NCBI RefSeq assembly: GCF_001677475.2
Contig: NZ_CP015229.1
Source: Escherichia coli
GTDB lineage: Bacteria > Pseudomonadota > Gammaproteobacteria > Enterobacterales > Enterobacteriaceae
Strand: one strand, 5' to 3'
DNA: 64,000 bases
Shown here: piece by piece, positions 50,821 through 52,832 of the stretch
How the letters are laid out: each line of letters begins with the position of its first letter
Numbering within the stretch: the stretch's first letter is position 1
Notes under the pieces: model-generated
What the model was told of the DNA's origin: nothing
Databases searched by the model: none
Seen by the model: the letters and a program-made list of their open reading frames with translations, nothing else
Translations under genes and position numbers: made by a program

Positions 50821-51153
50821 ATGGCTGGTTGGTTTGAACTCAGTAAGAGCAGTGATAATCAGTTCCGGTTTGTGCTAAAAGCGGGCAATGGTGAGACTAT
50901 CCTCACCAGCGAGCTGTATACCTCAAAAGCCTCTGCGGAAAAGGGCATTGCGTCGGTGCGTAGCAACAGCCCGCAAGAAGAACGCTATGAGAAAAAAACG
51001 GCAAGCAACGGCAAATTCTATTTCAATCTGAAAGCCGCCAATCATCAAATTATCGGCTCCAGCCAGATGTACGCCACCGCGCAATCTCGTGAAACCGGAA
51101 TTGCCTCCGTTAAAGCCAATGGCACAAGCCAGACGGTGAAAGACAATACGTAA
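50821..51153 (+). CDS. yegP: UPF0339 (tandem DUF1508) protein YegP
   Basis: ORF 50782..51153 trimmed to MAGWFELSKSSDNQFRFVLKAGNGETILTSELY... (110 aa) with RBS aaggag; two internal repeats (FRFVLKA.., FYFNLKA..). Confidence 0.85.
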   Translation: MAGWFELSKSSDNQFRFVLKAGNGETILTSELYTSKASAEKGIASVRSNSPQEERYEKKTASNGKFYFNLKAANHQIIGSSQMYATAQSRETGIASVKANGTSQTVKDNT

Positions 51154-51299
51154 TTACGATGCCGGGCGTGGGTTGTTGGCGTCCGGCGCTTTACCAGATA
51201 CCCCCACAGCGCTACAATGCCCGCCCTTAAAGTGGGGGCACTCCCCTAACCGCTTCATCAGGTGAAGCGGATCTGACCTGTCATCAGAACGAGAGAATT

Positions 51300-52661
51300 A
51301 TGTTTAAACCGGAACTCCTTTCCCCGGCGGGAACGCTGAAAAATATGCGTTACGCTTTCGCTTATGGCGCAGATGCTGTTTATGCGGGCCAGCCGCGTTA
51401 CTCCCTGCGTGTGCGCAACAACGAATTCAACCACGAAAATCTTCAGCTCGGCATCAATGAAGCCCACGCGCTGGGGAAAAAGTTTTATGTCGTGGTCAAC
51501 ATTGCACCGCACAACGCCAAGCTGAAAACTTTTATCCGTGACCTGAAACCGGTGGTGGAAATGGGGCCGGATGCGCTGATTATGTCCGATCCAGGGCTGA
51601 TTATGCTGGTGCGTGAGCACTTCCCTGAAATGCCGATCCATCTCTCGGTACAGGCTAACGCCGTGAACTGGGCGACGGTGAAATTCTGGCAGCAAATGGG
51701 CCTGACCCGCGTGATCCTCTCTCGCGAGCTGTCGCTGGAAGAGATTGAAGAGATCCGCAATCAGGTGCCAGATATGGAGATCGAAATCTTCGTTCACGGC
51801 GCGCTGTGCATGGCCTACTCCGGTCGCTGCCTGCTCTCTGGCTATATCAACAAGCGCGACCCGAACCAGGGCACCTGCACCAACGCCTGCCGCTGGGAGT
51901 ACAACGTCCAGGAAGGGAAAGAAGATGACGTTGGCAACATCGTACACAAGTACGAGCCGATTCCGGTGCAAAATGTTGAGCCGACGCTGGGTATCGGCGC
52001 GCCAACCGACAAAGTGTTTATGATCGAAGAAGCCCAGCGTCCGGGCGAGTATATGACCGCGTTTGAAGATGAGCACGGCACTTACATCATGAACTCGAAA
52101 GATCTGCGCGCCATCGCCCATGTAGAACGCCTGACCAAAATGGGCGTGCATTCGCTGAAAATCGAAGGTCGTACCAAATCTTTCTACTATTGCGCACGCA
52201 CCGCGCAGGTTTACCGTAAAGCTATCGATGACGCCGCTGCGGGCAAACCGTTCGATACCAGCCTGCTGGAAACTCTGGAAGGTCTGGCGCATCGTGGCTA
52301 TACCGAAGGTTTCCTGCGTCGTCATACTCACGACGATTATCAGAACTACGAATACGGTTATTCAGTTTCTGACCGCCAGCAGTTTGTTGGTGAGTTTACC
52401 GGTGAGCGCAAGGGGGACCTCGCGGCGGTAGCGGTGAAAAATAAATTCTCCGTTGGCGACAGCCTGGAGCTGATGACGCCGCAAGGCAACATTAACTTTA
52501 CCCTTGAGCACATGGAAAACGCCAAAGGCGAAGCTATGCCGGTAGCACCAGGCGATGGTTATACTGTGTGGCTCCCGGTGCCGCAGGATCTTGAGCTAAA
52601 TTACGCGCTGCTGATGCGTAATTTCTCCGGGGAAACCACGCGTAACCCCCACGGTAAGTGA
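51300..52661 (+). CDS. trhP: Peptidase U32-family protein YegQ / TrhP (tRNA 5-hydroxyuridine synthesis)
   Basis: 453-aa ORF MFKPELLSPAGTLKNMRYAFAYGADAVYAGQPRYSLR...; U32 family. Confidence 0.85.
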   Translation: MFKPELLSPAGTLKNMRYAFAYGADAVYAGQPRYSLRVRNNEFNHENLQLGINEAHALGKKFYVVVNIAPHNAKLKTFIRDLKPVVEMGPDALIMSDPGLIMLVREHFPEMPIHLSVQANAVNWATVKFWQQMGLTRVILSRELSLEEIEEIRNQVPDMEIEIFVHGALCMAYSGRCLLSGYINKRDPNQGTCTNACRWEYNVQEGKEDDVGNIVHKYEPIPVQNVEPTLGIGAPTDKVFMIEEAQRPGEYMTAFEDEHGTYIMNSKDLRAIAHVERLTKMGVHSLKIEGRTKSFYYCARTAQVYRKAIDDAAAGKPFDTSLLETLEGLAHRGYTEGFLRRHTHDDYQNYEYGYSVSDRQQFVGEFTGERKGDLAAVAVKNKFSVGDSLELMTPQGNINFTLEHMENAKGEAMPVAPGDGYTVWLPVPQDLELNYALLMRNFSGETTRNPHGK

Positions 52662-52713: not shown

Positions 52714-52745
52714 CAGCTGCATTTATTAAGGTTATCATCCGTTTC

Positions 52746-52832
52746 GCTGAAAAACATAACCCATAAAATGCTAGCTGTACCAGGAACCACCTCCTTAGCC
52801 TGTGTAATCTCCCTTACACGGGCTTATTTTTT
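52746..52832 (+). ncRNA. cyaR: CyaR (RyeE) Hfq-dependent sRNA
   Basis: gctgaaaaacataacccataaaatgctagctgtaccaggaaccacctccttagcctgtgtaatctcccttacacgggcttatttttt matches my memory of CyaR and ends in a terminator hairpin (gtgtaa...ttacac) plus T6. Confidence 0.85.
52806..52832. other. Phage P2-type attachment core, apparently unoccupied attB, at the cyaR 3' end
   Basis: aatctcccttacacgggcttatttttt is the reverse complement of the P2 att core AAAAAATAAGCCCGTGTAAGGGAGATT (from memory); no ogr-like or other phage ORF follows. Confidence 0.55.

Follow-up and report, generated by a model that had tools for sequence, protein, structure and literature searches.

Two separate hairpins in the yegP-trhP spacer of Escherichia coli: a probable yegP 3′-end hairpin and a conserved trhP leader with an anticodon-arm-like element

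Introduction

The 146-nt spacer between yegP and trhP (yegQ) lies in a 64-kb stretch of Escherichia coli DNA, referred to here as the window, and carries in the leader of trhP a small anticodon-arm-like hairpin (P3) whose closest described parallel is the thrS operator. In that system, excess threonyl-tRNA synthetase (ThrRS) binds an anticodon-arm mimic in competition with the 30S subunit. The hairpin of the thrS leader, GUGAUC-UUUCGUGUG-GGUCAC, lies 5′ of UAAGGA. P3 likewise presents a 7-nt anticodon-like loop just ahead of a Shine-Dalgarno sequence, and the gene that follows encodes a protein that binds the tRNA in question; the logic proposed here is the same. The two systems differ in that trhP encodes a tRNA-modifying enzyme and not a synthetase, that thrS has two mimic hairpins whereas the trhP leader has one, and that C33 and C37 of P3 break the tRNA rules in Enterobacteriaceae.

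Two further groups of mRNA elements invite comparison. TadA edits anticodon-arm-like mRNA hairpins and Tgt acts on virF mRNA, and P3 shares with these substrates an anticodon-arm-like form and the U34-G35 target context of a tRNA enzyme, but it is located in the leader of the enzyme's own gene and its modification is conjectural. The protective stem-loops of the ompA type, which are found in 5′ untranslated regions (5′UTRs), resemble the trhP leader in that it is short, with stable hairpins and conserved pairing; in contrast to them, the first trhP hairpin (P1) starts 8 nt from the 5′ end, and conservation peaks in the weakest hairpin, P3, which a role in stability does not predict. TrhP is a prephenate-dependent U34 hydroxylase.

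Two hairpins separated by the trhP promoter

An earlier note, made from sequence alone and covering the entire spacer (between the yegP stop codon at 51151-51153 and the trhP ATG at 51300), had described two stable hairpins, neither followed by a strong U-tract, and had suggested that they may form a leader or attenuator structure for trhP or a processing site. Both stems are present as described, and both fold upon RNA structure prediction: hairpin 1 reaches -18.3 kcal/mol on its own (z -3.0) and hairpin 2 -13.2 kcal/mol (z -4.8), with 0 of 200 shuffles as good in either case. The sequence past the stem is GCUUUACC for hairpin 1 and AUCUGACC for hairpin 2, and a terminator scan calls neither hairpin. 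The present analysis adds to these features a promoter between the hairpins, the leader hairpins P1 and P3, and a pairing that spans the transcription start site (TSS).

The two hairpins are separate, unrelated elements, because the trhP promoter sits between them. A consensus scan places this promoter, TTTACC-17-TACAAT, at 51190-51218, and the yegQ TSS has been mapped to NC_000913.2 2163617 with 29 reads and a 5′UTR of 75 nt (Kim et al. 2012, PMC3415461), which corresponds to a C at 51225 in the window, the seventh base past the -10 box. With this start, hairpin 1 is excluded from the primary trhP transcript, while hairpin 2 is transcribed, at +26..+46 of the 5′UTR. The idea of a trhP leader structure thus survives for hairpin 2, which also shows compensatory changes, and has to be abandoned for hairpin 1, which lies upstream of the -35 box, follows yegP and is succeeded by an RNA 3′ end mapped by Term-seq. 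The combination that the earlier note had named as speaking against its idea, a lack of covariation together with a TSS downstream of both hairpins, is contradicted on both counts for hairpin 2; the TSS does exclude hairpin 1.

Folded as a whole, the spacer has only a modest advantage over shuffled sequences in the sense orientation (z -2.1) and none in the antisense orientation (z -1.1). The whole-spacer fold contains a third stem, CCCCCAC/GTGGGGG, which was rejected: the pairing spans the TSS and so cannot form in trhP mRNA, and in the toxin-antitoxin allele described below other sequence takes the place of the 5′ arm.

A covarying helix in the trhP leader

Conservation was followed in the trhP upstream regions of 80 Enterobacteriaceae species, obtained via TrhP, and the set was then widened by nine species from six other families to 89 Enterobacterales species. 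The 75-nt leader folds into three successive hairpins, P1, P2 (the hairpin 2 introduced above) and P3. The P2 stem pairs CCGCTTCA (51250-51257) with TGAAGCGG (51263-51270) across TCAGG and forms a perfect helix of 8 bp, or of 9 bp when a U.G closing pair is included. A hairpin occupies this position in 71 of 71 distinct leader sequences, with stem variants such as CCGCCUCA/UGAGGCGG, UCGCCGCA/UGCGGCGA and CCGUCCCA/UGGGACGG, and in a sequence-only MAFFT alignment compensatory changes are found at all eight pairs, with 88% of cells paired. The proportion rises to 94.6% in an alignment fitted with a covariance model, which is biased towards structure but agrees with the unfitted one. None of 500 shuffles reaches the covariation score of P2, slid-partner controls fall to 34-50% paired, and the frequent G.U pairs are compatible with the sense strand only. 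Because the sequence drifts while the pairing persists, the helix itself appears to be under selection, and P2 is very probably a selected RNA helix of the trhP leader.

P1 covaries more loosely, with 78% of cells paired and changes on both sides of all six pairs in the model-fitted alignment, and its pairing is kept through variants such as GAGGA/UCCUC and GUGG/CCAC. An extra hairpin of 16-18 nt, for example CACTCTCCCTGCGAGAGCG, is present in the P1 loop at three loci (L033, L036 and L047) from Raoultella and Enterobacter sp. JUb54; P1 thus tolerates insertions, while the spacing between P2 and P3 stays fixed.

The leader covariance model, built from Enterobacteriaceae only, also matches Yersinia, Mixta, Morganella, Pectobacterium, Providencia and Limnobaculum, and it gives one match per locus, except in Cedecea, and none elsewhere in the 64-kb window. 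In Cedecea sulfonylureivorans (L078, 2242-2503), an insertion of ~155 bp splits the leader just after P2. Each side of the insert carries a copy of ~26 bp that take in P2 (TTAACCGCTTCACCCGGTGAAGCGGT), and the insert itself has a terminator-like hairpin inside and may be a small mobile element. In addition, an E. coli-like yegP-trhP contig from Logan SRR9087304 (L112, 100-340) carries many transitions, among them a compensated change of P2 from CCGC/GCGG to CCAC/GUGG, with P3 intact but for its last base; the sample may be mutagenised or damaged.

When 4 kb around the site were scanned with Rfam, only CyaR passed, and the spacer gave a single chance-level match (E=9.5); in the literature, nothing was found that describes the trhP leader or trhP regulation. 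The trhP leader is thus an undescribed member of a broad class, the conserved cis-acting 5′UTR structures. Several more specific assignments were considered and rejected. A riboswitch is not indicated, as there are three separate hairpins with no junction or pseudoknot and no Rfam match. The upstream open reading frames (ORFs) GUG-GGG-GCA-CUC-CCC-UAA and GUG-AAG-CGG-AUC-UGA have frames that are, on inspection, unconserved across species. A loop-loop pairing between P2 (UCAGG) and P3 (CCUG) was dismissed, since many species have a CCUGG loop in P2 that is unable to pair, and a CsrA site was dismissed as well, since the GGA at the P2-P3 junction is unconserved.

P3, a near-invariant element ahead of the start codon

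P3 starts 1 nt past P2 and ends 2 nt before the Shine-Dalgarno-like GAGAG. The pattern NCUGA-N7-UCAGN is found in all 89 Enterobacterales species, 11-17 nt 5′ of the start codon (11 nt in E. coli). Within the loop, positions 1, 3 and 4 (C32, U34 and G35) are invariably C, U and G in these species, position 2 alternates between C and U, position 5 may be U, A or C, and positions 6 and 7 vary more freely. The 23-nt block that contains P3 has a major-allele frequency of 0.983, with 14 of its 23 columns invariant, compared to 0.980, 0.993 and 0.761 at the first, second and third codon positions of trhP. Because the fold is marginal and the stem never covaries, it is, judging from these alignments, the sequence of P3 that selection keeps.

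Resemblance of P3 to tRNA-Thr(UGU)

The geometry of P3 and the U-G in its loop are reminiscent of an anticodon arm, and the 17-nt anticodon arms of 33 E. coli tRNA species, taken from K-12 and O157 loci, were compared to it. The E. coli element is closest to tRNA-Thr(UGU), the product of thrU (as identified by BLAST and ARAGORN), whose anticodon stem-loop reads ACUGA-CUUGUAA-UCAGU and is identical at 13 of 17 positions, while the other 32 species reach 10 at most. In Pectobacterium and Limnobaculum, where the P3 loop is CUUGUGA with U33 and a purine at 37, 14 of 17 positions agree with tRNA-Thr(UGU) and the runner-up tRNA has 10-11. P3 and tRNA-Thr(UGU) have in common the anticodon stem CUGA/UCAG and the loop positions C32, U34 and G35. 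Among random perfect hairpins with a 5-bp stem and a 7-nt loop, a score of at least 13 of 17 is reached with P=0.011 against any of the 33 arms, and with P=0.0025 against any of the six TrhP substrates. The triplet equivalent to the anticodon is always UGU, UGA or UGC, which are the anticodons of the substrates Thr4, Ser1 and Ala1. TrhP/TrhO hydroxylate six tRNAs in all, and tRNA-Thr4 is one of these (Sakai et al. 2019, PMC6599085).

P3 therefore has two features of thrS-type mimics, a stem of ~5 bp with a 7-nt loop and a resemblance to the arm of the cognate tRNA, and its placement relative to the start codon and GAGAG fits the exclusion of the 30S subunit by a bound protein. The alternative that the P3 loop is a codon-like 'specifier' (UCA/ACA) was rejected, as it is inconsistent across species. 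A separate observation concerns the combination C28-U29-G30/C40-A41-G42, which is common to P3 and to the anticodon stems of tRNA-Thr(UGU), tRNA-Pro(UGG) and tRNA-Ala(UGC) (L091, L094 and L097), three of the six TrhP substrates; outside those three tRNAs only Asp(GUC) has it among the 33 species, and the shared bases may serve in recognition or may be coincidental.

Hairpin 1 and the yegP 3′ end

In hairpin 1, GCCGGGCG (51161-51168) pairs with CGTCCGGC (51180-51187) through seven Watson-Crick pairs and one G.U, and a U.G pair (51169/51179) lengthens the stem and leaves a loop of ~9-11 nt. Like Rho-independent terminators, it is a GC-rich stem-loop 8 nt past a stop codon with an RNA 3′ end only 4 nt past the stem: Term-seq has mapped a 'primary' 3′ end of yegP to U00096.3 2165559 (Adams et al. 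2021, supplementary file 1, PMC7815308), and the conversion of this coordinate to the window was checked against the K-12 annotation. It differs from such terminators in that only three U's follow in E. coli (GCUUUACC), that the consensus scan does not call it, and that its tail is the -35 box of the next promoter. Counterparts of the U-run are UUUUUCUUU in Citrobacter, which is a proper U-tract, and UUUAUAUCC in the toxin-antitoxin allele of E. coli.

A GC-rich hairpin follows the yegP stop codon in 13 of the 13 species, out of 80 Enterobacteriaceae, that have a full-length yegP just upstream of trhP, and among the 80 it was seen only after yegP. The GCCGGG/CCCGGC base of these hairpins is conserved, their top is variable yet paired (Kluyvera, Citrobacter, Enterobacter and Lelliottia), and in all 13 species they end right at the trhP -35 box. 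Given the Term-seq 3′ end and the regular occurrence after yegP in these species, we hold with high confidence that hairpin 1 is the terminator or 3′-protective hairpin of yegP. It would act as an intrinsic terminator with a weak U-tract, as a barrier to 3′ exonucleases, or as both, and its short U-run doubles as the trhP -35 box. It counts against termination that three U's make a poor intrinsic terminator, and for this reason the mapped 3′ end could stem from the trimming of longer transcripts.

A repetitive extragenic palindromic (REP) element or bacterial interspersed mosaic element was rejected for hairpin 1. The median number of matches to an 801-bp query that spans the spacer is one in each E. 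coli genome, although such a query is too coarse to seed a 27-nt repeat, the K-12 annotation has no repeat feature here, and only the GCCGG/CCGGC ends resemble what we take to be the REP consensus. As an element, hairpin 1 is unremarkable, and public data already include the 3′ end that it marks.

Conservation of the trhP promoter

The trhP promoter is a conserved promoter of the sigma-70 type. TTTAC[TC] at a spacing of 17 nt is found in 69 of the 80 Enterobacteriaceae species, and the -10 box and a discriminator of the NCCCGCCC type are kept in all 80; for Klebsiella KPN_02532 no TSS is listed. Promoters of the rRNA/tRNA type with GC-rich discriminators are similar in that TACAAT is followed by a C-rich GCCCGCCC, and dissimilar in that the trhP -35 box is weak. 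GC-rich discriminators are typical of promoters inhibited by ppGpp/DksA, and the sequence of the trhP discriminator suggests that here a tRNA-modification gene is under stringent or growth-rate control.

Proposed mechanism and alternative explanations

Taken as a whole, the spacer is best explained, with somewhat better than even probability, by a yegP terminator, a promoter, and a trhP leader in which P3 is an operator. It is similarly probable that the leader controls the initiation of translation. In this proposal, P2 would be a rigid scaffold that keeps P3 folded and exposed, perhaps through end-to-end stacking, and P3, beside a weak Shine-Dalgarno sequence, would be a translational operator for a sequence-specific factor that governs 30S binding. 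By analogy with ThrRS and the thrS operator, the likeliest candidate for this factor would be TrhP itself, which, when in excess of the unmodified tRNA pool, would bind P3 and block initiation; that TrhP is the effector through anticodon-arm mimicry by P3 is nonetheless put forward only tentatively. Poor translation of trhP may in turn expose its mRNA to Rho. In a Rho N340S mutant yegQ rises >30-fold by reverse transcription quantitative PCR, which is among the strongest effects, and an elemental pause sequence is reported within the gene (Chhakchhuak and Sen 2022, PMC9160355); the increase is consistent with a poorly translated leader.

In its most specific form, the proposal is that P3, held by P2, mimics the UGN-anticodon tRNAs that carry cmo5U, and that TrhP binds it, or hydroxylates its U34 equivalent, and thereby sets the level of its own translation according to how much unmodified tRNA is present. 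This version is speculative and we consider it a minority possibility. If it is true, it would be a new variant of substrate-mimic autoregulation and, as far as we know, the first case of a tRNA-modifying enzyme shown to be autoregulated via substrate mimicry, and the C28-U29-G30/C40-A41-G42 stem shared by Thr4, Pro3 and Ala1 would be a candidate for the feature that TrhP recognises. Frozen in Enterobacterales, without an Rfam entry and with an element that looks like a substrate, the leader offers a testable hypothesis for feedback control of wobble-uridine hydroxylation, and P2-P3 (~40 nt) could serve as a minimal RNA for studies of TrhP-RNA recognition.

A number of points weigh against this proposal. 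P3 alone folds weakly (-3.6 kcal/mol, z -0.6), its invariant stem provides no covariation to prove the pairing, and the outermost pair, 27:43, is unmaintained in 6 of 89 species. tRNA anticodon loops have U33 and a purine at 37; in P3 this canonical signature is missing from most species, with C33 in 82 and C37 in 80 of the 89, and U33 is present in Yersinia, Morganella, Providencia, Pectobacterium, Limnobaculum, Sodalis and Shimwellia. The likeness to a tRNA was noticed post hoc, and P=0.0025 is not overwhelming. TrhP prefers Leu3 and Pro3 over Thr4 (Sakai et al. 2019, PMC6599085), and the Rho effect on yegQ has not been assigned to a position in the leader (Chhakchhuak and Sen 2022, PMC9160355). 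No P3-like motif was found upstream of trhO, cmoM or cmoA, nor does the paralogue rlhA carry a mimic of its enzyme's substrate in its leader. Finally, outside Enterobacterales a single TrhP homologue, Oceanospirillaceae-like and 63% identical, offered usable upstream sequence, which is different and lacks the leader. Two fragment representatives in the wider phylogeny were discarded, one being an E. coli-like mutated contig and the other an unrelated operonic paralogue.

The leader could also do without a dedicated regulator, if P1-P3 set the half-life of the mRNA and a fixed low level of translation, as hairpins that slow RNase E, and if P3 were frozen by its overlap with the ribosome landing site. 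P1, P2 and P3 are each a simple hairpin and form neither a junction nor a pseudoknot, trhP has a weak Shine-Dalgarno sequence, and no small RNA (sRNA) or protein partner is documented, the only yegQ chimera in the Hfq CLASH data being internal to the coding sequence (CDS); however, a ribosome landing site would not normally stay unchanged over 17-23 nt throughout an order while P2 has changed at every pair, a role in structure only would allow the P3 stem to covary as P2 does, and a protective hairpin would be expected closer to the 5′ end than P1, which starts 8 nt from it, so this explanation appears unlikely. Alternatively, the conserved element might act at the DNA level, where a dimeric transcription factor on the inverted repeat TCTGA-N7-TCAGA (+48..+64) would block elongation. 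Conserved half-sites that flank a variable centre have the classic look of such an operator, and the stem of P3 shows no compensatory change, but the site lies 50-60 bp past the start, beside a P2 that is selected at the RNA level as judged by its sense-strand G.U pairs, and its conservation is asymmetric: in the loop only the 3′ half is free to change, the 5′ half being frozen, and of the two outer arm bases the left one is variable and the right one constant. We know of no E. coli factor with this motif, and the DNA operator is given little credence.

Frozen sequence by a start codon is also typical of sRNA targets, and a strong Rho effect such as that on yegQ has been seen for sRNA-controlled leaders, which could mean that a trans-acting sRNA binds P3 and the Shine-Dalgarno region, with P2 as an Hfq or structural module. 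Yet the Hfq CLASH tables hold no leader chimera and no candidate sRNA with a complementary seed was identified, which leaves a slim chance for this mechanism. Another tRNA-Thr anticodon-arm protein might bind P3 in place of TrhP, and ThrRS comes to mind because tRNA-Thr(UGU) is the best match, because the P3 loops of E. coli, Pectobacterium and Limnobaculum have G35-U36, the ThrRS identity nucleotides, and because the loop of the thrS leader hairpin is similar (UCGUG). But A36 in 17 of 89 species and C36 in one would abolish recognition by ThrRS, for which there is moreover no functional reason to control trhP, and this candidate is very improbable. Least credible of all is the scheme of the earlier note, in which both hairpins belong to the trhP leader and act as a transcription attenuator or a processing site. 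There are indeed two stable hairpins upstream of trhP, and readthrough of the weak yegP terminator would put hairpin 1 in a longer trhP transcript; against this, the TSS lies between the hairpins, neither has a U-tract, yegP is upstream of trhP in just 13 of 80 species, all of which keep the leader, with no hairpin 1 seen among the 80 other than behind yegP, and a toxin-antitoxin cassette keeps the hairpins ~780 bp apart in 34% of E. coli genomes. As an intrinsic attenuator, P2 is contradicted by its own features, as it is followed by AUCUGACC and folds with no competing antiterminator pairing seen, and by the absence of 3′ ends in the yegQ 5′UTR from the Term-seq tables of Adams et al. 2021, a single data set in which absence is not proof.

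Feature coordinates and genomic setting

The gene order in the window is baeS-baeR-yegP-trhP(yegQ)-cyaR, based on the ORF list, the annotation and Rfam, and the annotation of the spacer can now be corrected, one hairpin being in all likelihood the yegP terminator, abutted by the trhP promoter. The features are collected in Table 1.

Table 1. Features in and around the yegP-trhP spacer (window coordinates)
Feature	Position	Strand	Basis and remarks
yegP CDS	50821..51153	+	ORF list, E. coli annotation; transcript probably ended by hairpin 1
Hairpin 1, probable yegP 3′-end/terminator hairpin	51161..51187	+	Fold; stem 51161-51169 with 51179-51187; 8 nt after yegP stop
trhP promoter -35 TTTACC	51190..51195	+	Promoter scan; overlaps short U-run after hairpin 1
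yegP mRNA mapped 3′ end	51191 (U00096.3 2165559)	+	Term-seq 'primary'; 4 nt after hairpin 1 stem
trhP promoter -10 TACAAT	51213..51218	+	Promoter scan; TACAAT in 78/80, TATAAT in 2/80 species
trhP discriminator GCCCGCCC	51219..51226	+	C-rich, contains TSS; NCCCGCCC-like in 80/80 species
P1, 5′-proximal small hairpin UGGGGG-CACU-CCCCUA	51233..51248	+	-8.2 kcal/mol; pairing kept
P2 (hairpin 2), +26..+46 of trhP leader	51250..51270	+	Fold, covariation
P3, UCUGA-CCUGUCA-UCAGA, anticodon-arm-like	51272..51288	+	Near-invariant; 89/89 Enterobacterales
Shine-Dalgarno-like GAGAG, weak	51291..51295	+	Sequence; 2 nt past P3; GAGA kept in most species
trhP (yegQ) CDS	51300..52661	+	ORF list; E. coli genome annotation, including K-12

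yegP (DUF1508) is patchy in its distribution. When 2.5 kb upstream of trhP were examined in the 80 Enterobacteriaceae species (loci L005-L084), a full-length copy was found between baeR and trhP in 13, and a remnant of 24 residues in one further species (L061). The gene is absent upstream of trhP in Salmonella and Klebsiella and present again in Yersinia and Sodalis. Just 3′ of trhP lies the sRNA CyaR (RyeE), at 52744-52829 (Rfam 100.7 bits, E 3.9e-20), which in K-12 adjoins the cryptic prophage PR-X/ogrK.

The 21 nt at 51188-51208, from hairpin 1 to 'GCGCTACAAT', form a hotspot for insertions. A parD/parE (RelE-family) toxin-antitoxin cassette of ~780 bp (L001, 790-1565) takes their place in 1846 of 5426 complete E. 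coli genomes (34%), with the trhP -35 box lost and the -10 box and the leader kept. In strain Q5 (L003, 3488 onward), a larger island with DUF4034 and DUF1266 genes is inserted at the same junction, and its left-end sequence is that of the toxin-antitoxin cassette, while strain NDM2 (L004, 1751-2950) has IS1 and a truncated parD at this junction.

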